Shown one piece after another: positions 27,795-46,097 of a DNA stretch of 64,000 nt. The DNA lies in the NCBI GenBank assembly GCA_046537975.1, contig JBKHJR010000003.1, forward strand, positions 6,677 to 70,676, in the 5' to 3' direction. Below the pieces are notes generated by a model. It saw only the letters and a program-made list of their open reading frames with translations. It made no database searches and had not been told where the DNA came from. The translations under genes and the position numbers were made by a program. Within the stretch, counting starts at the first letter, position 1. Each line of letters opens with the position of its first letter. Origin of the DNA: Desulfurivibrionaceae bacterium. GTDB lineage: Bacteria > Desulfobacterota > Desulfobulbia > Desulfobulbales > SURF-16.

Positions 27795-27877
27795 ATTTTC
27801 AGCGGTTGCCCCCACCTTCCGGAAAGATATTGCATTTCTGATCTGAGGGTATAATATTTCCGGTATAATTCAGGATC

Positions 27878-27925
27878 CCGGAATTTCAGACTACCCGATC
27901 CCGACAAGTTGACTAAAAAAGGGTC
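27878..27925 (-). repeat. dispersed intergenic repeat family, truncated copy D
   Basis: CCGGAATTTCAGACTACCCGATCCCGACAAGTTGACTAAAAAAGGG matches the left end of copy C (CCGGAATAATTTCAGACCACCTGAGCCCGACAAGTTGACCAAACAAAAGGG). The rest has diverged. Confidence 0.6.
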
Positions 27926-27994
27926 AACGATCCTCTCATTTTGTGAAGAAATGAACTCCACTAACAAAGTCTAACATTCAAATTTTTAAAATTT

Positions 27995-29281
27995 ATGCCC
28001 CATATAACCATAATTTATCCGGAATGGACCAAGATACCGGAACAGACCGAATTCCATCTCCCCCCTCACGCTCCGGTATGTCTGGCCGCCGAGATCCCGG
28101 AAGACTATGAGGTCTCTTTCATCGATGAAAACATGGACCCTGTCGACCCGGACAACCGGACCGATCTGATCCTGCTCTCCATGATGCTAACCTGCCAGAT
28201 CCCCAGGGGGCTGGAAATTGCCGCTGCTTACCGGAATAGAGGGATCAAGGTGATCGCCGGGGGAATTGCCACCATGCTTCATGCCGAAGAGGTGGCTGAA
28301 CATGTGGACTCTGTCTTTCTGGGCGAGGTGGAAGGCGGCCGTCTGACCAGGGTTCTGGAACACTGGCGGGAAAACAACCTGAAGCCGCTCTATAACTACT
28401 TCCGGGATTTTCCGGAAACAGAGGAGATTGGTCCGGCCCGCCGCGACATTCTCAACTACGATCACTACGTCTACCGGGGGATGCCCATGGTTGATCTGGT
28501 CCATGCCTCCCGGGGCTGCAAGTTCAACTGTTTTCCCTGCGCCACCGCCTATCTGGGAGGGCGCACCTTCAGACCCCGGCCCATGGCCAGGGTTGCCGAA
28601 GAACTGGAAGGAATTGACAATAATCGCCTGTTCCTGGTGGACAACTCCCTGGCCCAGGATCGGGACTGGGTACTGGAACTGTTTTCCGTCCTGGAGTCAT
28701 TAGGGAAAAAATGGATCAGTCACCCGATTCTGGACGAAGAAAAAGTAATTGCCCGGGCAGCCAAGGCAGGATGCTGGTTTGTTTATCAGGCTGTTTTTGA
28801 CACCTCGGAGGTGATACGCAACCGGGTAAAAAGGCTCAAAGATCATGGTATAGGAGTGGAAGCCGCAGTTCTCCTGGGACCTGACAATCAGGACGCCGAC
28901 TACATAAAAAGACTTATCGATTTTCTCCTGGAAATTGATGTGGACATGGCGGAATTCTCCATACTGACTCCCTTCCCTCACACCCCGATGACAAAACAGT
29001 TCAAAAAGGAAGGCCGAATACTGCATAACGACTGGCGAAAATATACCACCAGTGAGGTCTGCTTTCAGCCTAAACACATGACTCCGGATGAACTTCAGGA
29101 GATGTATCATTATGCCTGGCAGGCCTTTTATCAGGAAAAAAGTCAATCCCTGCGCATGGCCCGGCTCTTCCATAAGGTGGTAAAAAAAGAAATAGCAGAC
29201 AACAGCTGGCGCTCTCCCATCGACCTTTCCCAGAAACGCCGGAAATGGCAAGAAACCAGGGGAACCGGCAATGGGGATTAA
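27995..29281 (+). CDS. B12-binding-domain radical SAM enzyme (class B) #1
   Basis: 428 aa. N-terminal Rossmann-like B12-type domain (DLILLSMM...KVIAGGI...FLGEVEG) and a CxxxCxxC motif (RGCKFNCFPC). Confidence 0.85.
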   Translation: MPHITIIYPEWTKIPEQTEFHLPPHAPVCLAAEIPEDYEVSFIDENMDPVDPDNRTDLILLSMMLTCQIPRGLEIAAAYRNRGIKVIAGGIATMLHAEEVAEHVDSVFLGEVEGGRLTRVLEHWRENNLKPLYNYFRDFPETEEIGPARRDILNYDHYVYRGMPMVDLVHASRGCKFNCFPCATAYLGGRTFRPRPMARVAEELEGIDNNRLFLVDNSLAQDRDWVLELFSVLESLGKKWISHPILDEEKVIARAAKAGCWFVYQAVFDTSEVIRNRVKRLKDHGIGVEAAVLLGPDNQDADYIKRLIDFLLEIDVDMAEFSILTPFPHTPMTKQFKKEGRILHNDWRKYTTSEVCFQPKHMTPDELQEMYHYAWQAFYQEKSQSLRMARLFHKVVKKEIADNSWRSPIDLSQKRRKWQETRGTGNGD

Positions 29282-30605
29282 CTGCCTGCTTATCTCAACA
29301 AACCAGGTGGAAGAACCCTACCCTGTCTATCCCCTGGGAGTTGCCCATCTGATGGGAGCTTTGGAGGCCGGTGGTCACAGCAGTAAACATTTTGACCTTC
29401 TGGCCGGGGGAGGCACCGAAGCCCTTGCCGGTTTTCTGCAGGACTCCTCTTTTGACCTCATCTGCCTCTCTATCCGTAATATAGACACCATGGACTGTAA
29501 CTGTCCCCACCATCTTCTGGGAGACACTCAAAAAACCATGGCGATTATCAGGAGGTCATCGGGTGCCCCGGTGGTGGTGGGAGGGCCTGCCTTCTCCATC
29601 ATGCCGGAAGAAATAATGGAATTAATCCAGGCAGACTACGGGGTGGTTGGCGAAGGGGAAAGCGCCCTTGTCCGGCTGGCCGACAGCATGGAGAGGGGGA
29701 CGGCCATTGCAAAAGGGATCATCCATCCCCGCCCCCGAAAATACCCCTGGAGACAGACCGCCTATCAAAAGGAAAACATGGCTTACTACCTCCGGAATGG
29801 CGGGATGCTGAACATTCAGACCAAGAGGGGCTGCCCCTACCGGTGCGCCTACTGTTCCTATCCCAATCTGGAAGGAAGGCATTACCGCTTCCGGGACCCG
29901 GAAGAGGTGGCGGACGAAGTACGAAGGTTGAACCTGGAGCTGGGGGCGGACTATATCTTTTTTTCCGACTCCACCTTTAATGACAATCAGGACCACTTTC
30001 TCCAAGTCGCTGAGGCCCTGATCAAAAATGACAACCATGTCCCCTGGTGCGCCTTTTTCCGGCCCCGGAACCTCTCAGCCGGGGCCTTGGCCCTGATGAA
30101 AAAAGCAGGGCTGGCCGCCATGGAGATGGGGACCGACGCCGCCTGCGACCGCACCCTGGAGGGCCTGGGTAAAGGCTTCACGTTCGGCGAGGTGATCGAT
30201 AATCACGAATTAACAGTGGCCCAGAACATCCCATGCGCCCATTTCATTATTTTCGGCGGCCCCGGGGAAGACCGGGACACCATTAAAGAAGGGCTGGCCA
30301 ATCTCGACCGCCTGCGCAACACCGTGGTCTTTGCCGGAGCCGGAATCAGAATACTTCCCGGTACTGAAATATATAAGAAAGCTCTGGCCGAGGGACTTGT
30401 TGGTCAAAATCAGTCCCTGCTGGATCCGCTCTTTTATTTCTCTCCCGGGATCAGCCGCGAGGAAGTGGATCAGGAACTGAAAAACGCCTGGCAAAAGAGA
30501 TTTGACCGGGTATACCCCTTTATGGGAATGCAGCAAAGGATCAACCACCTGCACAAAAAAGGCTATAAAGGCCCGGTCTGGGATAATCTGCTGGTAAGAA
30601 GATAA
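29271..30605 (+). CDS. B12-binding-domain radical SAM enzyme (class B) #2
   Basis: 444 aa. B12-type domain (DLICLSIRNIDT...VVVGGPAFS...VVGEGE) and CxxxCxxC (RGCPYRCAYC). Overlaps the previous gene by 11 nt. Confidence 0.85.
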   Translation: MGINCLLISTNQVEEPYPVYPLGVAHLMGALEAGGHSSKHFDLLAGGGTEALAGFLQDSSFDLICLSIRNIDTMDCNCPHHLLGDTQKTMAIIRRSSGAPVVVGGPAFSIMPEEIMELIQADYGVVGEGESALVRLADSMERGTAIAKGIIHPRPRKYPWRQTAYQKENMAYYLRNGGMLNIQTKRGCPYRCAYCSYPNLEGRHYRFRDPEEVADEVRRLNLELGADYIFFSDSTFNDNQDHFLQVAEALIKNDNHVPWCAFFRPRNLSAGALALMKKAGLAAMEMGTDAACDRTLEGLGKGFTFGEVIDNHELTVAQNIPCAHFIIFGGPGEDRDTIKEGLANLDRLRNTVVFAGAGIRILPGTEIYKKALAEGLVGQNQSLLDPLFYFSPGISREEVDQELKNAWQKRFDRVYPFMGMQQRINHLHKKGYKGPVWDNLLVRR

Positions 30606-30658
30606 TTCAAGATTTACTCCTGACCGGAAATTGTTTTTCCGGATCGGCAAGAACATCC

Positions 30659-32775: not shown

Positions 32776-32850
32776 GAAAAGGGCCATATCAAGACCTAAG
32801 ACCCTGCACCTGGAACTTAACCCCTCTCAATCAAGAGATCTAAGCTAATT

Positions 32851-33111
32851 ATGGATGACTTAAAAAGACAATTAAAAGGAATTATTGTAAAAGACCTCAA
32901 ATTAACCGGCATAACTCCTGAAGAGATAAAGGATGATGACTCTTTATTCGAAGAAGGACTCGGGCTCGACTCCCTTGATGCCGTGGAACTGGTGGTTCTT
33001 ATCCAGAAAAATTTCGGAGTGCAGATCGAGGACATGGATGAGGGGAATCAGGCCTTTGCCTCCATAAATTCCCTGGCCCGGTTCATTCAGGATAGACAGA
33101 AACAGGAATAA
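32851..33111 (+). CDS. acyl carrier protein #1
   Basis: 86 aa, phosphopantetheine site GLDSLDAVELV. Confidence 0.88.
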   Translation: MDDLKRQLKGIIVKDLKLTGITPEEIKDDDSLFEEGLGLDSLDAVELVVLIQKNFGVQIEDMDEGNQAFASINSLARFIQDRQKQE

Positions 33112-33282
33112 CTACAGCCGGTTTCTGCCTGATTAGCTGGTAAAATCTCTCTTCCGCGCACAGGGAACAGAAAGGACAGGGTTTTCCCTGAATGACAAAA
33201 CCAATTTTTGGCGCCCTATTCTTTGCAAGCAATTATAACTTATTACGAAAACAGCAAGACTTGTTGAAAGAAAATATTCTGA

Positions 33283-34524
33283 ATGAATAAAAAGCTGCAC
33301 AACAGAGTCGCCGTCTCCGGGACAGGCTGTATATCCGGGGCAGGGCGAGATGTCAGGGCCCACTGGGACAGTCTCTGTAACAGAAGGATAAATTGCGGCC
33401 CTGTTCCGGAATGGCTGTTTGCAACCGACCTTCCCTACCCGGTTTTTACGGCTCCGGCGGAATGCAGTCATCCTGAACAGGACCTTTATTTCCCTTATCT
33501 TCCCCCCCGCCCGGAAAACGAGATCAACCGGACAATACTTCTGGTGATTAACGCGGCTGTACAGGCCCTGCTGCAAACCGGTTTGTCTTTAGAGGAATTA
33601 AAGATGAAAAATGTAGGCATGGTGTTCGGCACCACCGTGGGCTGCACTTTTAATAACGAAGATTACTACTCCGCCTGGCGCCGGGGGGAAAAACCCGATC
33701 CGGAGCCGGTAAATCGCTATCTCGCCGGCAACCTGGCCTCTGCCCTCCAGTCTTTTTCCGGAATCAAGGGGCCGGCAGCGGTGATCACCAATGCCTGCGC
33801 CTCAGGAACTGATGCCATCGGCCTGGCCCGCAACTGGATCCTTTCCGGCCTTTGCGATCTGGTTATTGCCGGAGGGGGGGATGAACTCTCCAGAATTGCC
33901 TACAACGGTTTCACCAGCCTGCAGCTGACTTCAAAATCTCCCTGCCGCCCTTTTGACCGGGACCGGGACGGATTGAATCTGGGGGAAGGGGCGGCGGTCC
34001 TGATCCTGGAACCGGAAAGCAGGTGCCGTGAGCGGGGGAGTTCTACCCTGGGCTGGCTTCGGGGTTACGGTGCGGCAAATGATGCCTATCATCCCACTGC
34101 CCCCCATCCACAGGGCCGTGGCCTGAAAGCGTCTTTGGATATGGCCCTGGAGCAGATTGAGGGAGAGCGAAAAATCTCCTATCTAAACAGCCATGGAACA
34201 GGGACTCCGAGCAATGACCCGGCTGAGATGAAGGGCCTGCAATCTTCTTCTGCATACATAGAGAATGCGGCAATCGTTTCAAGCAAGGGTCTCACCGGTC
34301 ACACCCTGGGGGCGGCCGGGGCCTTGGAGGCAATTTTCACCCTGCTCTCCCTGAATGAAGGTTTTACCCCCGGTTCAGCCGGCTGCAGTCATCCCGACCC
34401 GGAACTTGCCCTATCTCCCCTGACCCGGGGAGAAAACCGGGAACTGGCCGGCAGCCTGGGACTGAGTACCTCGCTGGCCTTTGGCGGCGGCAATAGTGCC
34501 CTGATACTGGAGAGAGCCAAATGA
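33283..34524 (+). CDS. beta-ketoacyl-ACP synthase (KS I/II type) #1
   Basis: 413 aa. Active Cys ITNACASGTDA, His motifs SHGTGTPSND and GHTLGAAG. Confidence 0.9.
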   Translation: MNKKLHNRVAVSGTGCISGAGRDVRAHWDSLCNRRINCGPVPEWLFATDLPYPVFTAPAECSHPEQDLYFPYLPPRPENEINRTILLVINAAVQALLQTGLSLEELKMKNVGMVFGTTVGCTFNNEDYYSAWRRGEKPDPEPVNRYLAGNLASALQSFSGIKGPAAVITNACASGTDAIGLARNWILSGLCDLVIAGGGDELSRIAYNGFTSLQLTSKSPCRPFDRDRDGLNLGEGAAVLILEPESRCRERGSSTLGWLRGYGAANDAYHPTAPHPQGRGLKASLDMALEQIEGERKISYLNSHGTGTPSNDPAEMKGLQSSSAYIENAAIVSSKGLTGHTLGAAGALEAIFTLLSLNEGFTPGSAGCSHPDPELALSPLTRGENRELAGSLGLSTSLAFGGGNSALILERAK

Positions 34525-35273
34525 GCAGGATCCAGATATCCTCCATAGCTCTAAACGAAAATCAAAACCCGCAGACTTCATTTGCCCGGGAACTGAGGCG
34601 GGCTGACGGTTTCACAAGCCTGGCCGTTACAGTCGCCGAACAGGCTCTTGCCGGACTCAACCCCCATGATGACAGGGGGGAGACCGGGATATTTATCGGC
34701 ACAGCTTTCGGTCCCCTGGCTACCAATTTTGCCGCCCTTGATACCCTGCTCGATGACGGGGAAGGGCAGATGTCCCCTACCCTGTTTTCCCATTCGGTTT
34801 TCAATACCGCCGCCGGTTATATAAGCCGGCTCTTTAAACTCCGGGGACCGGCCTATACCCTGACCAACTACTGCTGGCCTTTCTTCCTGGCCCTGCGGGA
34901 AGGAAAGACCGCAGTGGAACACGGGATAATCAGGAGGGCGGTGGTACTGGAAGTGGAAATATACAGCCGGATCCTGACCGAGGCCGGACAACGGTCAAAG
35001 GGGGAAGACTTCCCCGTCCTTGTACCCGGCGCAGTCGCCTGGATACTCGAGGACGAAACTGACACCGGCAATGAGCCTGTAGGTCTTCTTGATTCCCTGG
35101 AATTCGAGGAATACGATGTCGCCCCGGAAGAATTCCTTTCCCCTCGCCCTCTGGAGCATTCATTTGCTGTCAGCCGCACCGCCCGGCAGTTAAAAAAACT
35201 CCCCGGCCAAAAAGAGTCATGGTGTGCTGAAGAGCTGTTCGGCAAGGCCCGGGTTGACCTGCAGTCTCCTTGA
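34521..35273 (+). CDS. truncated ketosynthase-like partner protein (chain-length-factor-like, N-terminal half only)
   Basis: 250 aa. ATGA overlap with the KS gene. GPAYTLTNYC aligns with the KS active site, but the His-His C-terminal half is missing. Confidence 0.7.
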   Translation: MSRIQISSIALNENQNPQTSFARELRRADGFTSLAVTVAEQALAGLNPHDDRGETGIFIGTAFGPLATNFAALDTLLDDGEGQMSPTLFSHSVFNTAAGYISRLFKLRGPAYTLTNYCWPFFLALREGKTAVEHGIIRRAVVLEVEIYSRILTEAGQRSKGEDFPVLVPGAVAWILEDETDTGNEPVGLLDSLEFEEYDVAPEEFLSPRPLEHSFAVSRTARQLKKLPGQKESWCAEELFGKARVDLQSP

Positions 35274-35536
35274 CCGGAGACAACCGGAAGTGGAAAGTCG
35301 GAAGTAGAAAATTGCAATGCCGTCATTATTATGGTATTTCTGCAAGATTAGATTTTCTTATACCTTGAACCGGGAATACCCTGTGATCCCGGGATATCAA
35401 TCGTCCCTGAAGGTGTATCATGGTAAAGTTCGTGACGAAAACAGTCTATTATGAAAACAAAATAAGGAATCTTCAGGATCGAACAGATGAACTCTCTGAT
35501 TGAATGCCACCAATCAAATAATAATACGGTGAAGAC

Positions 35537-36772
35537 GTGCCGACAAAAAGGGTAGTTATTACCGGACGGGGAGCGGTATCTCCTTATGGTCTGGGAGTTA
35601 AGCTCCTTACAGAAAAGGTCTGGCAGAACTGTTCAGGGATACGGCTGATGCCGGAATGGCAGGAGATAAAAGGCCTTGAATCCCATCTTGCCGCTCCGGT
35701 TCCCGCCATTGATAGCTCCCAACATCTGCCCCGCTCCCTGCGTCGTACCATGGGTGATATGGCTCTGTACGCTGTGCTGGCCTCCCGGGAAGCTGCGGGG
35801 GAAGCCGGGCTTGAGGAAGAAACCCTGACAGGCGGCAGCACCGGAGTTGCCATCGGTTCCACCACCGGTTCTCCCAGTGTCTTAGAAGAATTTTATCAAA
35901 ACTACATCCCGGGAAAAAGTATCGAAGAGGTCAGATCCGGGATGTTTTTCAAAATAATGGGACACAGCTGTGCAGCCAATGTATGCCTGGCTCTGGGGAT
36001 CAAAGGGGAACAATGGTCACCTGCGAGTGCCTGCACCTCTGCAGCCCAGGCTATCGGTATGGGTTATCTGCTGATCAAAAGCGGCCGCCAGGAAATAATG
36101 CTCTGCGGCGGTGCTGATGAGGCCCATCCCACCGTCACCATGATCTTCGATGTAGTCAAGGCAGCCTCCAGATATGCCGGGGACCCCATTCTGGCTCCCA
36201 GACCTTTTGACAGCCGGAGGGACGGCGTGGTCTGCGGCGGCGGCAGCGGTATCCTGGTTCTGGAAAGCCTGGAATCAGCCCAAAAACGGGGGGCTGACAT
36301 TCTCGGCGAGATAAAAGGCTTCGGCCTGGTCAATGACAGTCAGCACATTGCCAATCCCAGCAGGGAGTCCATAGCAAGGGCTATGAACGGAGCAATGACT
36401 GAGGCCGGCATCAATTACCGGGAAATAGATTATGTCAATGCCCATGCCACCGGAACCGTACTGGGCGATATCGCTGAAGGGACAGCCATCCGGGAAAATC
36501 TCAAAGAAACCACCCCGGCAAGTTCATTTAAAGGCCATCTGGGCCATACCCTGGGAGCAGCCGGTTCCCTTGAGGCTATAATTCTTCTGGAGATGCTGGC
36601 CCGGCAGGAAATCGTCCCCACTCTTCACCTCGAAGAGGCCGACCCTGAACTAAAAGGCATGGATCTGGTCCGGGAAATCCGGCCCCAGCGGATGAATTGT
36701 GTCCTTAAAAACAATTTTGCCCTTGGCGGAGTGAACACCGCTCTGCTCTTGAAACAGTGGACAGGTAGATAA
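35537..36772 (+). CDS. beta-ketoacyl-ACP synthase II-like (FabF-like) #2
   Basis: 411 aa with a GTG start. Active Cys SPASACTSAAQA, AHATGTVLGD and GHLGHTLGAAG. Confidence 0.9.
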   Translation: MPTKRVVITGRGAVSPYGLGVKLLTEKVWQNCSGIRLMPEWQEIKGLESHLAAPVPAIDSSQHLPRSLRRTMGDMALYAVLASREAAGEAGLEEETLTGGSTGVAIGSTTGSPSVLEEFYQNYIPGKSIEEVRSGMFFKIMGHSCAANVCLALGIKGEQWSPASACTSAAQAIGMGYLLIKSGRQEIMLCGGADEAHPTVTMIFDVVKAASRYAGDPILAPRPFDSRRDGVVCGGGSGILVLESLESAQKRGADILGEIKGFGLVNDSQHIANPSRESIARAMNGAMTEAGINYREIDYVNAHATGTVLGDIAEGTAIRENLKETTPASSFKGHLGHTLGAAGSLEAIILLEMLARQEIVPTLHLEEADPELKGMDLVREIRPQRMNCVLKNNFALGGVNTALLLKQWTGR

Positions 36773-37056
36773 TGACGGAAGAAGAGATCAAAAAAAGGGT
36801 TAGAAAAGTCCTTGCCCATGAATTTGAACTTGAAGAGGCGGAGCTTAAACCCGAGGTCAGCCTGTATGAAGATCTGGAACTGGACAGTCTTGACGCCGTG
36901 GATATGGTAGTGGCCCTGGAAAAAGCCTTTGCCATGAAAATGACCGATCAGGAAGCCCTGCGTGAAGTGGCAACTATTCAGGATCTTTTTGATTTCTTGA
37001 TTGAGATGGCCCATGAAACCAACAATGAAATTAGGGAAGACTCTGGTACGGGATAA
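36772..37056 (+). CDS. acyl carrier protein #2
   Basis: 94 aa, LELDSLDAVDMVV. The start overlaps the KS stop by 1 nt (TAATG). Confidence 0.88.
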   Translation: MTEEEIKKRVRKVLAHEFELEEAELKPEVSLYEDLELDSLDAVDMVVALEKAFAMKMTDQEALREVATIQDLFDFLIEMAHETNNEIREDSGTG

Positions 37057-37816
37057 CGATATCCTACAATATATTAAAGACGGTTTTAGAAAACTCTTTT
37101 TCAATATTTACTTCTGGCCTCTCTTTGTCCTGATTACCCTGATCAGCTTTTTCTGCATTCCCCTGATAACAGCCGCCAACTTTTTCTTTCATTTTTGGGC
37201 GCAGGACAAAGCCTTTCGGAACGGGATCAGGATCTACGGCCAGGTAATAATAAAAATTGCCTCCGTCATGGCCCCGGTAGAGGTCGAAGACAGATCAGGG
37301 GGATTATCCCTGCCCGCTATATTTGTTGCTAATCACAACTCCTCTGCCGATCCTTTTCTTTTCGGGGCCCTGCCTTTTGAAAACAGTTTCGTCACCAGCT
37401 GGCCCTTCAGGATTCCGTTTTACCGCTGGGCGATGAAACAGGCCGGTTATATTGATGCCAATAAAGGCTGGGAAAACCTGGTGCGCGAGGGGTGCAGACT
37501 CTTTAACCGGGGAAGTTCCCTGATTATCTGGCCGGAAGGACATCGCAGTCCGGAAGCGGAATTGCAGAGATTCCGCAGCGGAGCTTTCAGACTGGCGCTG
37601 GAAACTGGCCGTCCCATTGTCCCGGTCTGTATCCTGGGTTCGGGCGATTTGCTTCCTCCGGGCAGAAGACTGCTGAATCCGGTGCCGGTAAAACTTATCA
37701 TTTATCCGGAAATTCCCCCGGAGAGATATGCCAACGCTTCCCAAGCCCACAAGATGTTGGGTGAAGAAGTCAGAGATATTATTCAAAAAGAAATAAGGGG
37801 TGCCGGTGAACTTTGA
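37001..37816 (+). CDS. PlsC-family 1-acyl-sn-glycerol-3-phosphate-type acyltransferase
   Basis: 271 aa. N-terminal TM helices, an HX4D motif (NHNSSADP) and a PEGHRS motif. The true start may be ATG at 37013 or 37025. Every option overlaps the ACP 3' end. Confidence 0.8.
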   Translation: MRWPMKPTMKLGKTLVRDNDILQYIKDGFRKLFFNIYFWPLFVLITLISFFCIPLITAANFFFHFWAQDKAFRNGIRIYGQVIIKIASVMAPVEVEDRSGGLSLPAIFVANHNSSADPFLFGALPFENSFVTSWPFRIPFYRWAMKQAGYIDANKGWENLVREGCRLFNRGSSLIIWPEGHRSPEAELQRFRSGAFRLALETGRPIVPVCILGSGDLLPPGRRLLNPVPVKLIIYPEIPPERYANASQAHKMLGEEVRDIIQKEIRGAGEL

Positions 37817-37866
37817 CAATATCTTCGGATTGGTAATTTCCAATTATTTTAAACTGCACCGACTCT

Positions 37867-39162
37867 ATGGACTACTCACTCAATAAGGCCCTGAAATGGC
37901 GGCAAAGCGATCCCGATGAGATCAGGCACCATCAGGACCAGCTCTTACAAGATCATTTCCGGCAGGCCTCCGGGAGTACTTACTATCAGGAATTGTTCAG
38001 GAAGCTGACTCTGGATCCGGCTGAGATCACCCTGTCTGATCTGGATCAGGTCCCCCTTACTTCCAGACAGGACCTGGAGGAAAACCCCGGAGCTTTTACC
38101 GCGGTTTCAGAAGAGGCACAGGTGGATATGGCCCTGACCTCCGGGACCACCGGCAGCCCCGTCCCCGTGCCCTATACCGCCTCGGACCTGACCAGACTCG
38201 CCTTCAACGAAGAACTCTGTTTCCGGGGAGCGGGTCTCAAGGCAAGTGACCGGATTCTGCTCTGTGTCACCCTGGACAAGAATTTTATCGCCGGCCTGGC
38301 CTATTACAGCGGCGCAGTCCGCCTGGGGGCCTCGGTCATCCGCAGCGGCCCGGGACAGCCGGCCAGGCAATGGGAGATCATAAGACAACTCCGCCCTAAC
38401 GTAATAGTAGGAGTTCCATCCTTTCTGCTGAATCTGGCCCAATGGGGAGGAAAGGAAGGCCTGAAACCCGAGCAGGCCGGCATAAAATCCCTGATCACCA
38501 TCGGAGAACCCATCAGACAGCCTGATTACAGCTTTACCCCCCTGGGCCGGCAGCTTTCCGATATCTGGCAGGCCCGGCTTTTTTCATCCTACGGAGCAAC
38601 GGAACTGGAAACCGCCTGCTGTGAATGCCCGGCCGGCAAAGGCGGCCATATTCATCCCGAATTGATGATCGCCGAAATAATAGATGACCAAGGCAATAAA
38701 CTGCCGGCAGGTGAACCGGGAGAACTGGTTATAACCACCCTGGGAGTTGAAGGTTTTCCCTTGATCAGATTCAAAACAGGTGATATAGCAACCATCGAGG
38801 ATGCTCCCTGTGAGTGCGGCTGGAGAACATCCAGGCTGGGGCCTCTTCAGGGACGTCTGGCCCAGCGCCTGAAATACAAGGGAACCACCCTGTACCCGGA
38901 AATGATTTACTACCTTCTTCAGGATATCGAAGGAATAAAGGCCTACTACCTGGAAGTCCGGTCCTCTTATGATCTCTCCGATGACATCACCGTGACAGTA
39001 GGAGGAGATGATCCCTCCCTGTCGGCGGACAGAATTGCAGATCTTCTCCAGGCCGGTCTCCGGGTCCGGCCGCCGGTGAAAATAAAGGAAACCGAAGAGG
39101 TTCTGGCCATGATGAATCAGGGAAGCGGCAGCAAGACAAAACGTTTTTTTGATTACAGGTGA
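37867..39162 (+). CDS. PaaK / coenzyme F390 synthetase-like adenylate-forming enzyme
   Basis: 431 aa. AMP-binding motif TSGTTGSPVPVPYT and YGATE. Confidence 0.8.
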   Translation: MDYSLNKALKWRQSDPDEIRHHQDQLLQDHFRQASGSTYYQELFRKLTLDPAEITLSDLDQVPLTSRQDLEENPGAFTAVSEEAQVDMALTSGTTGSPVPVPYTASDLTRLAFNEELCFRGAGLKASDRILLCVTLDKNFIAGLAYYSGAVRLGASVIRSGPGQPARQWEIIRQLRPNVIVGVPSFLLNLAQWGGKEGLKPEQAGIKSLITIGEPIRQPDYSFTPLGRQLSDIWQARLFSSYGATELETACCECPAGKGGHIHPELMIAEIIDDQGNKLPAGEPGELVITTLGVEGFPLIRFKTGDIATIEDAPCECGWRTSRLGPLQGRLAQRLKYKGTTLYPEMIYYLLQDIEGIKAYYLEVRSSYDLSDDITVTVGGDDPSLSADRIADLLQAGLRVRPPVKIKETEEVLAMMNQGSGSKTKRFFDYR

Positions 39163-39268
39163 CATACCCACCTGGTTTCAGGTGTTATAGATAAAGTGAT
39201 CGGCACTTATCCATTCAAGCCAATTAAGTTGTGTCCGGTTTTGCCGGGCGAATCCATAAGGTTTTAAG

Positions 39269-40324
39269 ATGAAATGTTTTGGTGAACACTGGGGACTGGA
39301 ATTCAGTCCGGAAGAAATTGCCGCAGCCAGGGCGGAAAACGGTCTGTTATCCATGGAACTGGAGCTCTCCAGGGCCTGCAACCTGCGCTGCATTTACTGC
39401 TACGCCTCTTCCGGACTCCCCCTGGACCAGGAACTGAGCCTGGAAGAGATATACAATGTCGTGGACCAGGCGGTTGACCTCGGGGCCCAAAAAATCATTA
39501 TCCTGGGAGGCGGTGAACCCCTGCTTTACAGCGACCTGTTTGCGGTAATTGATTACCTTAAAAGCAAAGAGGTGACTGTCGACCTCTTCACCAACGGCAC
39601 ACTGATAACCGAAAAGACCGCGACCATGCTTTTTGAGCGCGGGGTCTCGGTGGTGGTCAAGTTGAACAGCCTGAATCCGGAGATCCAGGACCACCTGGCC
39701 GGTAAACCGGGAACCTCTGAAGAAATCATGACCGGTCTGAATCTCCTCCGGGAGGCCGGTTATCCTGATGCCCAACATCCCCTGGGCATTGAGACCGTAA
39801 TCTGCCGGCAGAACTACGACGAACTGCCGGACCTCTGGGCCTGGGCCCGCCGCCGGGGGATTATCCCCTATATGGAGATGATGACCATGCAGGGCAGAGC
39901 CACTAAGCACCCTGAACTGGAAGTCGAATCCGGAAAAGTCAGAGAGATGTTTGAACGCTTGTCCGAACTGGACCGGAAGGAATTTGACCACCACTGGTCC
40001 CCCCACCCCCCTCTGGCTGGTTCCCAGTGCGCCCGCCACGAGTACTCCTGCACAGTTACTGCCAACGGAGAAATATATCCCTGTCCGGGTGTAAGTGTGG
40101 CCGCGGGAAATATAAGGCAGTCCAGGCTGGCCGACATCCTGAAAAACGGAACACCTTTTATCCACTTAAGAGACATACGCCGAAATATCAAAGGGCGTTG
40201 CGCCAGATGCAGTTTAAGCCGGGTCTGTTACGGCTGCCGGGGCCATGCCTATCAGGTTACCGGAGATTACCTGGCGGAAGACCCCTTATGCTGGTTTTCC
40301 GAAGAAGAGTTGACCGGAAAATGA
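39269..40324 (+). CDS. radical SAM enzyme with C-terminal SPASM domain
   Basis: 351 aa. CxxxCxxC (RACNLRCIYC). SPASM pattern CTVTANGEIYPC (CX5GX4C), then CARCSLSRVCYGC and a final Cys (PLCW). Confidence 0.85.
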   Translation: MKCFGEHWGLEFSPEEIAAARAENGLLSMELELSRACNLRCIYCYASSGLPLDQELSLEEIYNVVDQAVDLGAQKIIILGGGEPLLYSDLFAVIDYLKSKEVTVDLFTNGTLITEKTATMLFERGVSVVVKLNSLNPEIQDHLAGKPGTSEEIMTGLNLLREAGYPDAQHPLGIETVICRQNYDELPDLWAWARRRGIIPYMEMMTMQGRATKHPELEVESGKVREMFERLSELDRKEFDHHWSPHPPLAGSQCARHEYSCTVTANGEIYPCPGVSVAAGNIRQSRLADILKNGTPFIHLRDIRRNIKGRCARCSLSRVCYGCRGHAYQVTGDYLAEDPLCWFSEEELTGK

Positions 40325-41616
40325 AGGTGCTGCTGATAAATCCGCCCAACTGCGGCCGGAGTATACCGGAAGAAAAATACGGCATCGACTCCCTGAAACA
40401 GATCTTCCGGGGCGAACCCCTGGCCCTGGAAGAACTGGCCGGCAACCTTCCGGCTCACGAGGTCAAAATTGTTGATCTCAAGGCGGACTCCCGGGACCTG
40501 TCGGAGGTTCTGGACTCTTTCCCCCCGGATATAGCCGGAATTACCGGGGTGACCTGCGAAGCCAACACCATGCTTAAGCTGGCCGGACAGGTGAAGGAGA
40601 CCTGCGGTTCAGTCGTGGTGGTGGGAGGAATCCACGCCAGCTGCGACCCCTGTTTTTTTAACCGGCCCCCGGTGGACTACATCGTCACCGGCCTGGGTAA
40701 AAAGACCTTTGCCGAACTGGCTGCCGCCTTAAAAGAGGGAAGGACAACCACCAATATCCCCGGAGTCGCCGCAGTTACCCCGGGCCGGGAACCGTACTTC
40801 CCGCCCCACCCTTGCAGCCCGGCGGACCTAAGGGATGACCGGCCCCCGGCCTATGACCTGGTCAAGGATTACCGGCAACACTACTATCTGCCCAAACTGG
40901 CTATGAATATGGGTTTCGTGAGCACGGCCTTCGGCTGTCCCTTCAACTGCTCCTTCTGCTGCCTGGGAGCCCAGACCGGGGGCAGATACCTGACCAGATC
41001 CGGGGAGGCGGTTGTCCGGGACATAGAGCTATTGGAGGATATTCCGGTCATAAGGCTCCTGGATGCCAACACCTTTGCCGATCCGGAGCACAGCCTCAAC
41101 CTGTGCACAGCCCTGCAGGAAGCAGGAATAAAAAGACAGTATCTGGCAGACGCCCGCTCCGATTCGGTGGTCAACAACCCGGATCTTTTCCGGCAATGGC
41201 ATGAAGCAGGCCTGCGGGCGGTAATCATCGGCTTTGAGGAAATCGACGATCTGCGCCTTAAGGCCATGAACAAGGCCAATAAGACGGCGGTCAACAACCA
41301 GGCTATTGACATCCTCCACCATACAGGGCTTACTATTGTCGGCGACTTTATTATTTCCCCGGAATACCGGGATGAAGATTTTGACCGTCTTCAAGAATAT
41401 ATAGAAACCAAAAAAATCGACCTGCCCATGGTGACGGTCATGACCCCCCTGCCCGGCACCAGACTTTATCAGGAAGAAAAAGACAGGATCAGCAACCACG
41501 ATCTGGACTACTACACCCTGACCAATGCCGTGCTCCCCACCGGGATGCCGGAAAAAAGGTTCTACCGGAGGTATGCCGATCTGCTCAGGGAAACCCATGC
41601 CGCAGCCCGGGTGTAA
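40321..41616 (+). CDS. B12-binding-domain radical SAM enzyme (class B) #3
   Basis: ATG at 40321 (MKVLLINPP) overlaps the SPASM gene stop (ATGA). B12-type domain (DIAGITGVT...VVVVGGIH) and CxxxCxxC (FGCPFNCSFC). The ORF-track start at 40027 lies inside the previous gene. Confidence 0.85.
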   Translation: MKVLLINPPNCGRSIPEEKYGIDSLKQIFRGEPLALEELAGNLPAHEVKIVDLKADSRDLSEVLDSFPPDIAGITGVTCEANTMLKLAGQVKETCGSVVVVGGIHASCDPCFFNRPPVDYIVTGLGKKTFAELAAALKEGRTTTNIPGVAAVTPGREPYFPPHPCSPADLRDDRPPAYDLVKDYRQHYYLPKLAMNMGFVSTAFGCPFNCSFCCLGAQTGGRYLTRSGEAVVRDIELLEDIPVIRLLDANTFADPEHSLNLCTALQEAGIKRQYLADARSDSVVNNPDLFRQWHEAGLRAVIIGFEEIDDLRLKAMNKANKTAVNNQAIDILHHTGLTIVGDFIISPEYRDEDFDRLQEYIETKKIDLPMVTVMTPLPGTRLYQEEKDRISNHDLDYYTLTNAVLPTGMPEKRFYRRYADLLRETHAAARV

Positions 41617-41644
41617 AGACAAACAAGAACTATTCAGCACCACG

Positions 41645-42799
41645 ATGAACAATGTCTATATAACAGATATCGCCGCCTTCCTGCCCAATAAGCCGGTAAA
41701 TAATGACGACATCGAAAAACTCCTGGGCTTAGGCAACTCCCTGCCCTCCCGGACCAAAAAGATAATCCTTAAAAATAACGGCATAGAAACCAGGCATTAT
41801 GCCATTGATCCGGAAACCAGGGAACTAACCCACACCAACGCCCAACTCGCCGCGGAAGCGGTAGCCAAGCTCAAGCCCTATGCCAATTTCAGCCCGGAGG
41901 ATATCTCCTGCCTGTGCTGCGGCTCTTCCACTCCGGATCAGTTCATGCCCGGTCATGCCTCCATGGTCCATGGCGAATTAAAGGGTTCAAGCTGTGAAAT
42001 CGTCAGCACCGCAGGTGTCTGCCTCTCCGGAATAACCGCCCTCAAGTACGCCTATCTGAACGTGGGAGCCGGACTCACTCCCAATGCCGTGGCCACAGGC
42101 TCGGAACTGGCATCTTCTTATCTCCGGGCCGAATTCCTGGAAAAGGGACCGGACCGGGAAAAAATAGACAAACTGGAGCAAAAGCCGGCCTTGAGTTTTG
42201 AGGCCGACTTCCTGCGCTGGATGCTCTCGGACGGAGCAGGAGCCGCTTTCCTTGGTACAGAACCCCGACCGGACGGGAAAAGCCTCAGAATAGACTGGAT
42301 CGACATTGTCTCCCATGCCCACCGCTATGAACCCTGTATGTATGCCGGAGCCAACAAAGACAAAAACGGCGAGCTCAGAGGCTGGCGGGAGTGCGACTCC
42401 CTCCCCGAAGCCCTGAACCGGGAATTCTTCCCCATAAAACAGGATGCCAGGCTCTTAAACCGCCGGATTCTGACCGCAGTGGTGGATGAAAGCCTGCCCG
42501 GAATAATCAAGGCCCGCAACCTGGAGCCGGACAATATATCCTGGTTCCTGCCCCACTACTCCTCGGAATACTTCCGCATTCCGGTCTTTAATCACCTGAC
42601 GGAAATAGGTTTCACCATTCCCTTGGAGCGCTGGTTTACCAATCTGGCCACCAAAGGCAATACCGGCTCCGCCTCCATCTACATAATCATGGAAGAGCTC
42701 ATGAAAACAGGCCGCCTCAGCCGGGGAGAAACCCTCCTCTGTTTCATTCCGGAAAGCGGCAGGTTCTCCACAGCCTATATGCACCTTACGGTGGTTTAA
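41645..42799 (+). CDS. KAS III-like (FabH/DarB-like) condensing enzyme
   Basis: 384 aa from MNNVYITD. Cys in STAGVCLSG, His in LPHYSS, Asn in GNTGSASI (C-H-N triad). Longer than canonical FabH. Confidence 0.8.
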   Translation: MNNVYITDIAAFLPNKPVNNDDIEKLLGLGNSLPSRTKKIILKNNGIETRHYAIDPETRELTHTNAQLAAEAVAKLKPYANFSPEDISCLCCGSSTPDQFMPGHASMVHGELKGSSCEIVSTAGVCLSGITALKYAYLNVGAGLTPNAVATGSELASSYLRAEFLEKGPDREKIDKLEQKPALSFEADFLRWMLSDGAGAAFLGTEPRPDGKSLRIDWIDIVSHAHRYEPCMYAGANKDKNGELRGWRECDSLPEALNREFFPIKQDARLLNRRILTAVVDESLPGIIKARNLEPDNISWFLPHYSSEYFRIPVFNHLTEIGFTIPLERWFTNLATKGNTGSASIYIIMEELMKTGRLSRGETLLCFIPESGRFSTAYMHLTVV

Positions 42800-43178: not shown

Positions 43179-44558
43179 ATGAAAAGATTCTTGAAATTGA
43201 CCCTGGAAGAGAAAATGGTCCTGGGGAATCTGCCGATTATTCTGGTGATTGTCTTAATCGCGGCCGTTTCCTTACAAGGGATCCAGGAACTCGACAAAAT
43301 TAACAAAGATATACTCGAAAACGATACTGTCCTGCAGCAGGTCACCGACAGGATGGCTGACAACCTCCTGGCCCAGGAGGCTTATGGCCGCCGCTCTCTC
43401 ATTCTGCAGAGCCGGGAGATGCGGGAGATGTTTCATCAGAGGGGAGAAGATTTCAAGGCCCTTGTCAAGCGGCTCCATGATCTGCCGGACAAACAGAATA
43501 TACCTGTTGCCCAGCTTGCCTCTCTGCATGACGAATTCCAGGCACTCTACAAGAATAAATTTTCCAGAGAAGAACCGCTTTCCCCCGGCCAGGCCGAAGA
43601 AGTCGATCAGGTCATGACCGAAAAGCTCGACAGCATCCTGGCTCTTATCCGGAAAATGGAGACTAAGGCGACAGAAAACAAGAGTGACAAGATGCTCTTG
43701 TTCGGAAATACCAGTCTCAGAATCTTCCGTACCACTATCCTTCTCTCCGGGCTCGGCCTGCTTATCGGCCTGGCTGCCATCGTCACCATAACCAGGAGCG
43801 CCAGCCGCTCAATCCGCCAATTAAAGCAGGCCACCGAGGAAATATCCCAGGGCAGATTCACTCATTTGACGGAAATTTCTTCAGATGATGAACTGGGTAA
43901 GCTGGCCAAGTCCTTCAACACCATGGCGGGACGGCTGGGGCGCCTGGAAGAAATGTATATAGATTCCAATCCGTTGACCAGATTACCCGGTGGGGTGACT
44001 ATCGAAAATGTTCTGCAAAATAAACTGGAATCGGGTAAATATCTTGCCTTTTGCATGTTGGATCTGGACAACTTCAAATCCTATAATGACAGCTACGGCT
44101 ATGCCAAAGGAAACGAAATTATCAGGGCTACTGCCAATATTATCGTTGCGGCAGTGGATAGGCACGGGTCCAAAGATAATTTTGTCGGTCATATCGGCGG
44201 AGACGACTTTGCCATTATAGTCAAGCTTTCACAGTATAAATCCATCTGTGAAGCCATCATCCGGGACTTCAACCAGATGGTTCCGACCTTTTACAGCACC
44301 CGGGACAGGAGAAAAGGATACATCATCGGCCATACCCGGCAGGGCGTGGAAGTACACATTCCATTGATGTCCATTTCCATTGCCGTGGTTACCAATGAGT
44401 ATAAAAAAGACATGAGTCATATTGAAGTATCGGAAATTGCAGCGGAACTTAAAGAACACGCCAAATCTCAACCAGGCAGCGTCTATTTGAAGAACCAGAG
44501 GGGTGAGGTAACCGGGGATACCGACAACCACCTTTTTACTCCCCGGGTAGTTAAGTAG
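43179..44558 (+). CDS. membrane HAMP-domain protein with variant GGDEF-like domain (GGDDF)
   Basis: 459 aa. One N-terminal TM helix, a periplasmic/coiled region, a second TM helix and HAMP (SDDELGKLAKSFNTMAGRL). The GGDEF-like domain has LTRLPGG, LDLDNFKSYNDSYGYAKGNEII and HIGGDDFAII. Confidence 0.75.
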   Translation: MKRFLKLTLEEKMVLGNLPIILVIVLIAAVSLQGIQELDKINKDILENDTVLQQVTDRMADNLLAQEAYGRRSLILQSREMREMFHQRGEDFKALVKRLHDLPDKQNIPVAQLASLHDEFQALYKNKFSREEPLSPGQAEEVDQVMTEKLDSILALIRKMETKATENKSDKMLLFGNTSLRIFRTTILLSGLGLLIGLAAIVTITRSASRSIRQLKQATEEISQGRFTHLTEISSDDELGKLAKSFNTMAGRLGRLEEMYIDSNPLTRLPGGVTIENVLQNKLESGKYLAFCMLDLDNFKSYNDSYGYAKGNEIIRATANIIVAAVDRHGSKDNFVGHIGGDDFAIIVKLSQYKSICEAIIRDFNQMVPTFYSTRDRRKGYIIGHTRQGVEVHIPLMSISIAVVTNEYKKDMSHIEVSEIAAELKEHAKSQPGSVYLKNQRGEVTGDTDNHLFTPRVVK

Positions 44559-45839: not shown

Positions 45840-46097
45840 CTAACCTGAAGCCCTAATAAACTCAGCCAGGCTGGAAAGGCTGGCCAGAACCTGGCGGCTG
45901 TTTTCCTCTGAGCCTATGTGGACATTGTACATTTTCTGAACCGCCACCACAATTTCCACGGCATCCAGGGAATCTATTCCCAGGGGGGATTCGGGTCCGA
46001 TCAGGGGGGCATCCAGGTCATAATCTTCCGGAACCTCCCCCGGCAGGTTGCAGATTTCATATATCATCTCCAGGAGTACCCTCTCCAGTTTTTCCAT
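45840..46097 (-). CDS. acyl carrier protein #3
   Basis: 85 aa, LGIDSLDAVEIVV phosphopantetheine site. Confidence 0.85.
   Translation of the reverse strand: MEKLERVLLEMIYEICNLPGEVPEDYDLDAPLIGPESPLGIDSLDAVEIVVAVQKMYNVHIGSEENSRQVLASLSSLAEFIRASG

Follow-up and report, generated by a model that had tools for sequence, protein, structure and literature searches.

A SPASM-type radical SAM enzyme encoded within an aryl-polyene-like ("ladderane-type") lipid gene cluster of a Desulfurivibrionaceae bacterium

The SPASM gene and its neighbors

The window analyzed here, a 64,000-nucleotide stretch of one contig from a Desulfurivibrionaceae bacterium, encodes on its plus strand a 351-residue protein (39269..40324, ATG start) with Pfam Radical_SAM (PF04055; 98.9 bits, 4.6e-28, cut-off 29.5) and SPASM (PF13186; 36.1 bits, 8.1e-9, cut-off 21.5) domains. 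The product is a member of the radical SAM superfamily, SPASM subfamily. An earlier sequence-only reading had assigned it there from motifs; all strings quoted in that reading are found in the translation, and the profile search that it suggested places the SPASM domain above the cut-off. The CxxxCxxC motif, SRACNLRCIYCY, provides C37/C41/C44. Auxiliary cysteines lie in a first block, CARHEYSCTVTANGEIYPC (C254/C261/C272), and a second block, CARCSLSRVCYGC (C311/C314/C320/C323), and the last is C341. SPASM domains are recognized by a seven-cysteine pattern, CX9-15GX4C ... CX2CX5CX2-3C ... C, which is present as C254-X12-G267-X4-C272, C311-X2-C314-X5-C320-X2-C323 and C341, all invariant. In an alignment of 39 orthologs ten cysteines, including C37/C41/C44, are invariant, and C261, which is extra to the pattern and is one of eight auxiliary cysteines, is conserved in at least 90%. 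The gene is under purifying selection (dN/dS 0.19 against the same-genus ortholog), and positions 39220-41000 are identical in a contig from a second sample of the same study.

Four genes of the same strand precede the SPASM gene. The first encodes KS2 (35537..36772), a beta-ketoacyl-ACP synthase of the PRK09116 type with Pfam ketoacyl-synt and Ketoacyl-synt_C domains and an NCBIfam NF006587 match of 390.6 bits, under the cut-off of 470. It is followed by ACP2 (36772..37056; PF00550, 1.8e-10; NCBIfam NF003757, 70.2 bits, cut-off 65), whose DSLD motif has a Ser39 that is invariant in 17 orthologs, and by a PlsC/LPLAT-type acyltransferase (37001..37816; PF01553, 3.4e-18) with an uncertain start, in-frame ATGs also lying at 37013 and 37025. 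The fourth encodes a FlxY/PaaK-like adenylating enzyme (37867..39162), hereafter the ligase, which is the counterpart of ApeH; it has a Pfam AMP-binding domain and an NCBIfam FlxY match of 430.7 bits, under the cut-off of 520. A gap of 106 nt (39163..39268) with a Shine-Dalgarno AAGG at 39258-39261 separates the ligase and SPASM genes. A consensus scan of 38900-39400 gave no promoter-like or terminator-like sites, and Rfam found only two tRNAs in the whole window, and thus no riboswitch.

Downstream is a class-B (B12-binding) radical SAM enzyme (40321..41616, plus strand; B12-binding 3.6e-12, Radical_SAM 1.3e-11), so that the SPASM gene lies between adenylating enzyme and B12 enzyme as first described. 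The 40321-41616 product has class-B architecture and is HpnR-like, yet it is no HpnR equivalog, because it scores 183 bits against NCBIfam HpnR with a cut-off of 650; its gene has a dN/dS of 0.15. Next is a StlD/DarB-family ketosynthase (41645..42799, plus strand; NCBIfam NF005293, 554.4 bits, cut-off 450). The DarB ORF opens at 41525, the NF005293 match begins at residue 44 of this long ORF and the ortholog in the same genus has 384 aa; the ATG at 41645 is the probable start. Further upstream on the plus strand is a pair of class-B-type radical SAM genes (27995..30605), the second of which (29271-30605) matches TIGR04072, 'lipid biosynthesis B12-binding/radical SAM protein', at 578.9 bits (cut-off 360) and marks the cluster type. 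The other two of the three ACPs claimed previously were also located: ACP1 (32851..33111, plus strand; PF00550, 1.3e-12; NF006617, 72 bits, cut-off 70) and, in the minus-strand arm, ACP3 (45840..46097; PF00550, 5.9e-5, 23.7 bits, cut-off 20.8).

Conserved gene order across related loci

Of 20 high-identity loci, 19 have the ligase gene directly 5' of the SPASM gene, as do 68 of 72 named loci; in 11 of the 20 the ligase stop codon overlaps the start of the SPASM gene or lies next to it (gap of -4 to +5 nt). An ortholog of KS2, the first gene of the module, is upstream in 17 of the 20. ACP2 is likewise found in 17 and is the carrier protein that travels with the SPASM gene, while the PlsC-type acyltransferase is found in 19, the remaining locus ending at a contig end. 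A Sumerlaeota record without the B12 enzyme has the order KS-PDH-KS-ACP-acyltransferase-ligase-SPASM-double dehydratase-thioesterase. A lipid-type operon surrounds the SPASM gene in all loci examined. The conserved partner of the SPASM gene is the upstream KS-ACP-acyltransferase-ligase module, the ligase foremost, and members of the SPASM family are constant components of aryl-polyene-like ("ladderane-type") clusters, which build lipids or pigments in anaerobic sulfur bacteria, and come mainly from Desulfobulbales.

The translational coupling of the SPASM gene to the B12 enzyme had been given weight in the sequence-only reading. The ATGA overlap exists, with the stop TGA at 40322-40324 and the ATG at 40321-40323, but the B12 gene is 3' of the SPASM gene in just 8 of the 20 and 20 of the 72 orthologous loci. 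B12 enzymes of the 40321 type instead adjoin DarB, in 13 of 15 and 18 of 22 loci. With DarB the B12 enzyme makes up a module of two genes, and it is not the conserved partner of the SPASM gene, because it is tied to DarB and is beside the SPASM gene in a minority of loci.

Similar clusters have been described. Kuenenia stuttgartiensis and Desulfotalea psychrophila have 'ladderane-type' FASII clusters in which a radical SAM gene (Kuste3343/DP1855) stands beside a phenylacetyl-CoA-ligase-like gene (PMC2649909; PMC4790861), and the order given for K. stuttgartiensis is ligase (kuste3344), SAM radical enzyme (kuste3343), SAM radical enzyme (kuste3342) (Rattray 2009, PMC2649909; Javidpour 2016, PMC4790861). 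The clusters are also alike in their FabF paralogs, ACPs, phytoene-desaturase-like enzyme and glycosyltransferase. In the window, a PaaK/FlxY-like ligase directly precedes the SPASM gene, and the surrounding KS/ACP cluster includes a TIGR04072 member; a Desulfotalea sp. record contains a 61%-identical ortholog in the order ligase-SPASM-KS fragment. Judged by gene order, the SPASM family corresponds to the Kuste3343/DP1855 "ladderane candidate" kind. Unlike those clusters, that of the window's genus is rearranged, with the DarB module after the SPASM gene and without desaturase and dehydratase genes. The literature has mentioned the gene family since 2009, and the window is one more, somewhat trimmed, example of the cluster. 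According to the accounts of the two clusters, these proteins were not detected when expressed in E. coli (PMC2649909; PMC4790861). No characterized member of the family and no reaction were found in Rattray 2009, Javidpour 2016, Dietl 2023, a 2026 FabF-pair preprint and a 2026 review, a search outside of which subscription-only papers fell.

The aryl polyene (APE) pathway of E. coli and Xenorhabdus has counterparts of the window's ligase, ACPs, KS/CLF, PlsC-type acyltransferase and GT2-DUF2062 protein. The described APE parts include the ApeH ligase, the ApeE/F ACPs, the ApeD acyltransferase and the ApeI:ApeP dehydratase (Johnston 2021, PMC8253772), and no radical SAM enzyme is among the gene products described there. 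The anaerobes' version of the APE pathway seems to have gained the SPASM and B12 enzymes.

Peptide, protein and tetrapyrrole substrates

Peptide maturases are the best-known members of the SPASM family, and the enzyme has sub-threshold NCBIfam matches to MftC (124 bits, cut-off 265), StsB, WgkB and PqqE. It could in principle be an ordinary RiPP maturase with a precursor that is short, divergent or encoded elsewhere. A search of 1913 small ORFs from 41 related stretches, of the kind the earlier reading had proposed, yielded one genuinely conserved family, the ACPs (34 of 41); the remaining clusters that recurred consist of frames shadowing ACP genes. The statement that the gap at 39163-39268 holds no small ORF requires amendment, since a 23-aa GTG ORF is present at 39196-39267. 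In a same-genus genome a 21-nt deletion takes away the first part of this ORF, and most of what remains is altered. Given that the ORF is disrupted there while the Shine-Dalgarno/start block, AAGGTTTTAA-ATG, is retained, it is read as a chance ORF. In 11 of the 20 loci an upstream gap of no more than 5 nt argues further against a precursor gene at that position.

The enzyme itself also lacks features of a peptide maturase. No RRE domain was found in it; its radical SAM core begins after just ~25 residues, while the alignment of CteB starts at residue 91 of that protein. The window's own genome, which is 95.6% complete, has no match to PqqD (PF05402). Together with the lipid-type operon at every examined locus, these results largely refute the precursor-peptide alternative: the SPASM enzyme is not a RiPP maturase, and we give that alternative only the slightest chance.

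The predicted structure bears on the same question. The AlphaFold2 model (pLDDT 88.7) has Foldseek TM-scores of up to 0.72, and VIA Z-scores of 26.6 with SuiB, 25.4 with CteB, 24.3 with anSMEcpe (model residues 25-347 superposed on chain residues 2-355), 23.0 with PqqE and 19.5 with GDGT-MAS. The closest solved structures are SuiB, CteB, SkfB and anSMEcpe, which share the fold across the whole radical SAM and SPASM unit (VIA Z 24-27, rmsd 3.0-3.4 Å over 286-310 residues, sequence identity 17-26%); SkfB is closest by sequence (2.8e-21). These enzymes act on peptides or proteins. The N-terminal peptide-recognition domain of SuiB and CteB has no counterpart in the window's enzyme.

Alternatively, an ACP itself might be modified at a residue, as a sulfatase is by anSME. 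The closest folds belonging to enzymes of peptides and proteins, and the proximity of ACP2, are in line with this proposal. We know of no precedent for modification of an ACP residue by such an enzyme. Moreover, the invariant residues of ACP2 outside the phosphopantetheine serine motif are ordinary carrier-protein positions, and the dehydratase fusions described below point to the acyl chain rather than to the protein. Modification of the ACP, which the sequence-only reading had also raised, gained no support and is considered very unlikely.

The best curated matches of the SPASM enzyme are to AhbD (176.2 bits, cut-off 500), TIGR04053, NirJ2 (149.3, cut-off 500) and NirJ (137.2, cut-off 515). 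AhbD and NirJ act on tetrapyrroles, and members of the AhbD/NirJ/TIGR04053 group act on small molecules rather than peptides and carry out oxidative chemistry. Like the window's enzyme, they combine radical SAM and SPASM domains at a similar length and have no RRE. The sequence-only reading had noted that SPASM enzymes usually act on ribosomal peptides or proteins. No peptide partner was found, but with AhbD and NirJ as the best curated matches this is not unusual in itself.

These matches raise the alternative that the product is an AhbD/NirJ-type enzyme that modifies tetrapyrroles, or one that matures sulfatases anaerobically, and that its gene is simply located in the cluster. The scores are only about a third of the cut-offs, however, and the context is lipid, not heme. 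A separate AhbD-like gene on another contig of the own genome scores much better, at 418 bits, while the halves of the SPASM gene reach 97.8 and 76 bits. A nearby cognate sulfatase had been named as a finding that would speak for sulfatase maturation; the own genome has no PF00884 match, in a search that was positive in 10 of 14 control genomes. Among the nearest representatives scanned, 101 of 104 have no NCBIfam match at E <= 1e-65, and the other three match through a second fused half. The family of the SPASM enzyme is large and uncurated. The tetrapyrrole or sulfatase alternative is largely refuted by context and is highly improbable. The Protein Atlas placed the enzyme in generic radical SAM/SPASM clusters only (Thermodesulfobacteriota, Nitrospirota) and gave no functional lead. 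An AhbD-like decarboxylation yielding the C31:8/C31:9 hydrocarbons of D. psychrophila was also considered, and no evidence for it was found.

Dehydratase fusions and a proposed role in lipid tailoring

Relatives of the SPASM enzyme carry additional domains. A C-terminal extension of ~150 aa, which always opens with an LP...IPHxxPM-type stretch, is present in 15 aligned proteins (471-516 aa) among the best 150 of the 50%-identity representatives. Pfam ApeP-like is found in eight of the 15 extensions, with most of these matches under the gathering score (P0127 at 29.3 bits exceeds the cut-off of 27, and the other seven score 12.9-25.5) and with the fused forms being mostly single-member clusters from metagenomes. 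FabA-like matches above the cut-off of 23 occur in two longer fusions, P0158 (26.7 bits) and P0196 (25.4 bits). In the AlphaFold2 model of P0121 a long helix (407-427) is wrapped by strands (436-490), with a pLDDT of 85-96 in most of the region. Free-standing homologs of the fused domain are found in the same clusters, with E values from 1.6e-11 to 1.3e-35 in 22 rows of related loci; the two locus sets share some of the records. In other lineages the nearest relatives carry an ApeP/FabA-type hotdog dehydratase as a fusion, and the fused domain matches the Pfam ApeP-like or ApeI-like families of the APE pathway. In a FastTree tree with SH-like support, which is unrooted because a coverage filter removed the intended outgroup, the own-genome AhbD-like paralog, the window's clade of 22 rows (support 99) lies inside a group of 60 rows (support 88). 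Of these 60, 21 are high-identity, 19 C-extended, 17 low-identity and 3 plain.

From the sequence it had been suggested that the substrate is not a peptide but is bound to an ACP or is a lipid. This suggestion is supported, indirectly, by the lack of a precursor, RRE, PqqD and sulfatase in the searches above, by the fixed KS/ACP/acyltransferase/ligase operon and by the ApeP/FabA-type fusions. Because relatives are fused to one half of an acyl-ACP dehydratase, we infer an ACP-tethered acyl substrate. The slightly favored conclusion is that the SPASM enzyme performs a tailoring step in an aryl-polyene-like ("ladderane-type") type II lipid pathway, with an ACP-bound chain as substrate. The candidate substrate class can be named as 3-hydroxyacyl-, enoyl- or aryl-acyl-ACP, given that there is no peptide partner, that the gene is tied to the KS-ACP-acyltransferase-ligase module and that dehydratase halves are fused in sister lineages.

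The alternative that the substrate is a finished or membrane-anchored lipid, after release from the carrier as the product of the PlsC-type and LpxL-type acyltransferases, would resemble the archaeal lipid radical SAM enzymes. Tes and Gms are SPASM-type radical SAM enzymes that act on lipids (review PMC13459092), and they share with the window's enzyme the radical SAM and SPASM-type auxiliary clusters, theirs forming C-C bonds on lipid chains without oxygen (PMC13459092). The near-constant PlsC-type neighbor would fit this alternative, as would the relative P0125, which is fused to a LolA lipid-carrier domain (60.3 bits), and the lipid-acting Tes/GDGT-MAS is among the fold matches. However, the archaeal enzymes are far more distant, GDGT-MAS aligning over 252 residues with a score exceeded by SuiB, CteB and anSME; their substrates are isoprenoid lipids, and an ACP-based pathway is found only on the window's side. 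The recurrent fusion partner is an acyl-ACP dehydratase half, not a lipid-binding domain. In the AlphaFold2 model of the SPASM enzyme no membrane segment was noticed. A finished lipid as substrate is considered rather unlikely.

For the preferred ACP-bound substrate, the following mechanism is proposed. The SPASM domain of this stand-alone enzyme is complete, which implies three [4Fe-4S] clusters in all, and the enzyme would work with the ketosynthase, ACP2, the PlsC-type acyltransferase and a FlxY/ApeH-like ligase that would prime the carrier. SAM would be reductively cleaved at the C37/C41/C44 cluster to a 5'-deoxyadenosyl radical, which would take a hydrogen from the acyl or aryl-acyl chain on the phosphopantetheine arm of the ACP, most likely from a 3-hydroxyacyl or enoyl intermediate at the dehydratase step. 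The substrate radical may then be oxidized via the two fully cysteine-ligated auxiliary clusters, a net two-electron oxidation (desaturation or dehydrogenation), or alternatively be quenched through a new C-C bond. These two reaction types are favored; oxidation is suggested because both auxiliary clusters appear fully ligated. Fully ligated auxiliary clusters are tied to oxidation in anSME, BtrN, AhbD and MftC. The tightest coupling is with the ligase, however, so the role could instead be on the starter unit.

It is tentatively proposed that this would be the first SPASM enzyme to act on an ACP-tethered chain, either desaturating it without oxygen or closing a ring by C-C coupling, next to the dehydratase step. 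If so, it would provide a missing radical step common to 'ladderane-type' and anaerobic aryl-polyene-like lipid clusters. Since 2006-2009 the radical SAM enzymes of "ladderane-type" clusters have been regarded as candidates for catalyzing unusual lipid chemistry in anaerobes, and not one of them has been characterized. The own genome has no good homolog of the fused dehydratase domain (best matches 1.9e-7 and 1e-4), and the CrtI-like desaturase of relatives is absent from it. The pathway of this genome is therefore a trimmed one, and the enzyme's substrate here may not be that of its relatives.

Finally, the analysis separates the SPASM enzyme from the adjoining B12 enzyme. The downstream B12-radical SAM protein would be a separate tailoring enzyme, probably a C-methylase, of the DarB (dialkylresorcinol) module, which in the window's genus would merely adjoin the SPASM gene. 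Fusions of SPASM and B12 enzymes were considered as support for a complex with the 40321 product and rejected, since neither fused B12 half resembles the HpnR-like neighbor: P0126 has one of the TIGR04072 type (423.8 bits), and P0203 has one like the minus-strand B12 enzyme.

Conservation and predicted fold of the SPASM enzyme

The plus-strand gene at 39269-40324 encodes a 351-residue radical SAM/SPASM enzyme. Pfam assigns the product Radical_SAM (4.6e-28) and SPASM (8.1e-9; 36.1 bits, cut-off 21.5), and the CxxxCxxC motif and SPASM cysteine strings quoted in the sequence-only reading all occur in the translation. C37, C41, C44, C254, C272, C311, C314, C320, C323 and C341 are invariant among 39 aligned orthologues, and C261 is retained in at least 90%. 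The radical SAM site is intact and the auxiliary set is full; by the SPASM ligand pattern, the eight auxiliary cysteines would suffice for full ligation of two auxiliary clusters. The region 39220-41000 is identical in a contig that the study obtained from a second sample. The gene is maintained, since its dN/dS against the same-genus orthologue (0.19) is similar to that of its neighbours (0.12-0.19).

AlphaFold models the protein with confidence (pLDDT 88.7, pTM 0.89). Superposed over its whole length, the model matches SuiB (Z 26.6), SkfB (26.2), CteB (25.4), anSMEcpe (24.3), ChlB (23.9) and PqqE (23.0), and Foldseek TM-scores against solved structures reach 0.72. Sequence identity to the matched solved SPASM enzymes is only 17-26%, the closest solved chain by sequence search being SkfB (2.8e-21). 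Only about 25 residues lie ahead of the radical SAM core, and the alignment to CteB begins at CteB residue 91; the N-terminal peptide-recognition domain of CteB therefore has no counterpart here.

A word-index search with the enzyme scored 8000 candidates, of which 3962 matched at E <= 1e-10. The best 120 of the 8000 are 60-83% identical, 318-392 residues long, carry both Pfam domains and, where named, come from Desulfobulbales-type bacteria. An even sample of the class gave matches at E <= 1e-40 in 103 of 201 genomes, falling into two groups (59-81% and 45-51% identity), and none of the 201 holds one match from each. Only 15 of 301 genomes in a phylum-wide sample match at E <= 1e-60, and the full library contains 420 representative clusters at E <= 1e-30. 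An NCBIfam match at E <= 1e-65 is absent in 101 of the 104 nearest representatives scanned; the three exceptions owe theirs to a second, fused half. These counts and the near-absence of NCBIfam matches indicate a large and unnamed family.

A literature search returned no paper assigning a reaction to the family. Passages of Rattray et al. 2009 (PMC2649909) describe clusters of kindred type in Kuenenia and Desulfotalea psychrophila and name the shared enzymes of radical SAM type, Kuste3343/DP1855 and Kuste3342/DP1853. In the relevant passages of Javidpour et al. 2016 (PMC4790861), kuste3344 is listed as a phenylacetyl-CoA ligase, with kuste3343 and kuste3342 as SAM radical enzymes; neither of these last two proteins could be detected in E. 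coli. The window's order of ligase, SPASM gene and second radical SAM gene fits Kuenenia kuste3344-3343-3342 at the level of gene order. A Desulfotalea sp. record contains an orthologue that is 61% identical. The SPASM gene is a member of a known, uncharacterised kind, to which the window itself contributes little new; the family's biochemistry is now easier to test.

Improbable peptide, tetrapyrrole and sulfatase roles

Small ORFs were surveyed in the window and 40 related loci of at most 20 kb each (1913 ORFs of 12-110 residues, mostly outside long ORFs) and compared by blastp-short at E <= 1e-3, a comparison that a very short hypervariable peptide could escape. This search across homologous loci, proposed in the sequence-only reading, yielded ACPs as the sole real family in common (34 of 41 stretches). 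The remaining recurrent clusters overlie ACP genes in another frame or on the opposite strand, and no small ORF recurs beside the SPASM gene in the 41 stretches at that threshold. That an ACP is itself the protein substrate is very improbable. A precursor gene has no room in 11 of the 20 high-identity loci, where the junction between the upstream gene and the SPASM start ranges from a 4-nt overlap to a 5-nt gap. The earlier statement that the 106-nt gap ahead of the window's gene holds no small ORF needs amendment, as a 23-residue GTG ORF (39196-39267, plus strand) ends just ahead of the start. In the same-genus genome a 21-nt deletion takes in the first part of this ORF, and the remainder is largely altered; the Shine-Dalgarno/start block of the SPASM gene is conserved there. 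The ORF is treated as chance. A hidden peptide as the substrate is given almost no credence.

The profile search places the enzyme in the Pfam SPASM family and in no NCBIfam subfamily, zero models reaching their cut-offs. The best scores below cut-off are AhbD (176 bits; cut-off 500) and TIGR04053 (153; 395), followed by NirJ2 and NirJ; MftC scores 124 (265). A tetrapyrrole or sulfatase role is scarcely credible. No sulfatase and no PqqD/RRE match was found in the genome's own assembly (95.6% complete). The gene is not the genome's AhbD; a separate and better AhbD-like gene (418 bits) lies on another contig.

The carrier protein operon and its variants

The surrounding cluster contains a member of TIGR04072, "lipid biosynthesis B12-binding/radical SAM protein" (578.9 bits; cut-off 360), together with KS/CLF pairs, three ACPs, a GT2-DUF2062 protein, LpxL-type and PlsC-type acyltransferases, an FlxY-like ligase and a DarB-type ketosynthase. 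Genes for CheW, CheB and CheR (23601-26450) lie just upstream of the cluster, and a HAMP-GGDEF protein (43179-44558) is encoded between the plus-strand and minus-strand arms.

Gene content ahead of the SPASM gene is constant in 20 high-identity loci. The ligase (37867-39162 in the window) is present in 19 of them and PlsC (37001-37816) in 19, the 20th being cut by a contig end; 17 list ACP2 (36772-37056) and 17 list KS2 (35537-36772). Of 72 named loci (identity >=53%), 68 have the ligase immediately upstream; this set has genomes in common with the 20 and is not independent of it. Despite the acyltransferases of the cluster, action on a finished lipid is considered unlikely.

Downstream, both sets are variable. 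The sequence-only reading gave weight to coupling with the B12-binding radical SAM gene (40321-41616), and the ATGA overlap (40321-40324) is present. That weight is not borne out, as the HpnR-like B12 enzyme and DarB (41645-42799) follow the SPASM gene in only 8 of 20 and 20 of 72 loci. A KS fragment/B12-like/TIGR04072 operon takes this place in 12 of 20 and in 40 of 72; in the larger set, 10 more loci are truncated by an end and 2 differ. The B12 enzyme and DarB are same-strand neighbours in 13 of 15 and 18 of 22 loci, with the exceptions mostly at locus edges; the B12 enzyme belongs to the DarB module. This pair (window 40321-42799; L035-L154 among related loci) is a two-gene unit placed variably relative to the SPASM gene.

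The halves of the cluster are also swapped between loci. The window (26475-42799) and its same-genus relative have unk254-KSfrag-B12like-TIGR04072-GT2-LpxL-ACP1-KS1-CLF, then KS2-ACP2-PlsC-ligase-SPASM; in 12 of 20 relatives (loci L042-L052 among them) the first half is placed after the SPASM gene. Some relatives have a PagL (lipid A 3-O-deacylase) domain gene directly after it (5e-19; L044:8733-9617, minus strand).

The operon of the 45-51% identity group has GT2, LpxL-type acyltransferase, ACP, KS, PlsC and a BchE-like B12 enzyme, then SPASM, and also a 4-coumarate-ligase-like enzyme and a DAK2/DegV fusion. In locus L060 the 4-coumarate-CoA-ligase-like enzyme adjoins the fusion, a 571-residue DAK2 (FakA-like)::DegV (FakB-like fatty-acid-binding) protein (2187-3902, plus strand). 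A Sumerlaeota record reads KS, CrtI-like oxidase, KS, ACP, PlsC, ligase, SPASM, double hotdog (ApeP-like and FabA), 4HBT thioesterase, KS and CLF, with no B12 enzyme in the record.

Dehydratase fusions and the proposed reaction

Fifteen of the best 150 representatives are 471-516 residues long, the SPASM unit being extended by about 150 residues, and all 15 extensions begin with an LP...IPHxxPM-type stretch. Pfam ApeP-like exceeds its cut-off of 27 in P0127 (29.3 bits) and covers most of the profile at 12.9-25.5 bits in seven further extensions. Three longer forms have FabA or ApeI-like domains (FabA in P0158, 26.7 bits, and P0196, 25.4 bits; cut-off 23), and in the model of P0121 (pLDDT 86.2) the extension shows a long helix wrapped by sheet. 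Most fusions are single-member metagenome clusters, and single cases could be gene-calling artefacts; the architecture nevertheless recurs across numerous divergent sequences. A 166-row FastTree tree puts the window's clade (22 rows, support 99) inside a 60-row group (support 88) that includes 19 C-extended forms; nested among 15 of these is the low-identity clade of Desulfobulbales (support 98).

A non-peptide substrate, ACP-bound or lipid, as the sequence-only reading suggested, is supported indirectly by the gene's fixed place in an ACP-based operon, the lack of a precursor peptide and the repeated fusions with an acyl-ACP dehydratase half. On balance, an ACP-tethered, non-peptide substrate is slightly more likely than not; given such a substrate, a two-electron oxidation is at best about an even bet. 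The substrate would be an acyl or aryl-acyl chain attached to a carrier protein, probably in the 3-hydroxyacyl/enoyl state, from which the 5'-deoxyadenosyl radical would take hydrogen. An electron could then leave via the two auxiliary clusters, by analogy with the oxidising SPASM/twitch enzymes anSME, BtrN, AhbD and MftC. The outcome would be desaturation or dehydrogenation, or the radical might close a C-C bond.

The fused-domain HMM matches stand-alone ORFs in 22 related-locus rows (E 1.6e-11 to 1.3e-35); where the loci are full-length, these ORFs come after CLF and are separated from the SPASM gene by about 9-10 kb. The window's own genome (95.6% complete) gives only 1.9e-7 and 1e-4 with this HMM; the ApeP-like dehydratase of relatives' clusters was not found in it, nor was their CrtI-like oxidase with the query used. 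The window's cluster is a trimmed version. Its remaining genes still show dN/dS of 0.12-0.19 despite the two genes not found.

Other fusion partners are LolA (P0125), a TIGR04072 enzyme (P0126) and a B12 enzyme resembling that on the minus strand of the window (P0203). Family members are further fused to YbaK-type tRNA_edit (P0153), an ABC ATPase (P0259) and DIT1_PvcA (P0226), and P0230 and P0234 have an N-terminal 2Fe-2S ferredoxin domain, P0234 with DUF3050 as well. P0218 (1135 residues; TIR and GAF) and P0260 (1322 residues; GAF) carry SPASM relatives (32-34% identity) at the C-terminus, a domain architecture more reminiscent of signalling or defence than of lipid synthesis.
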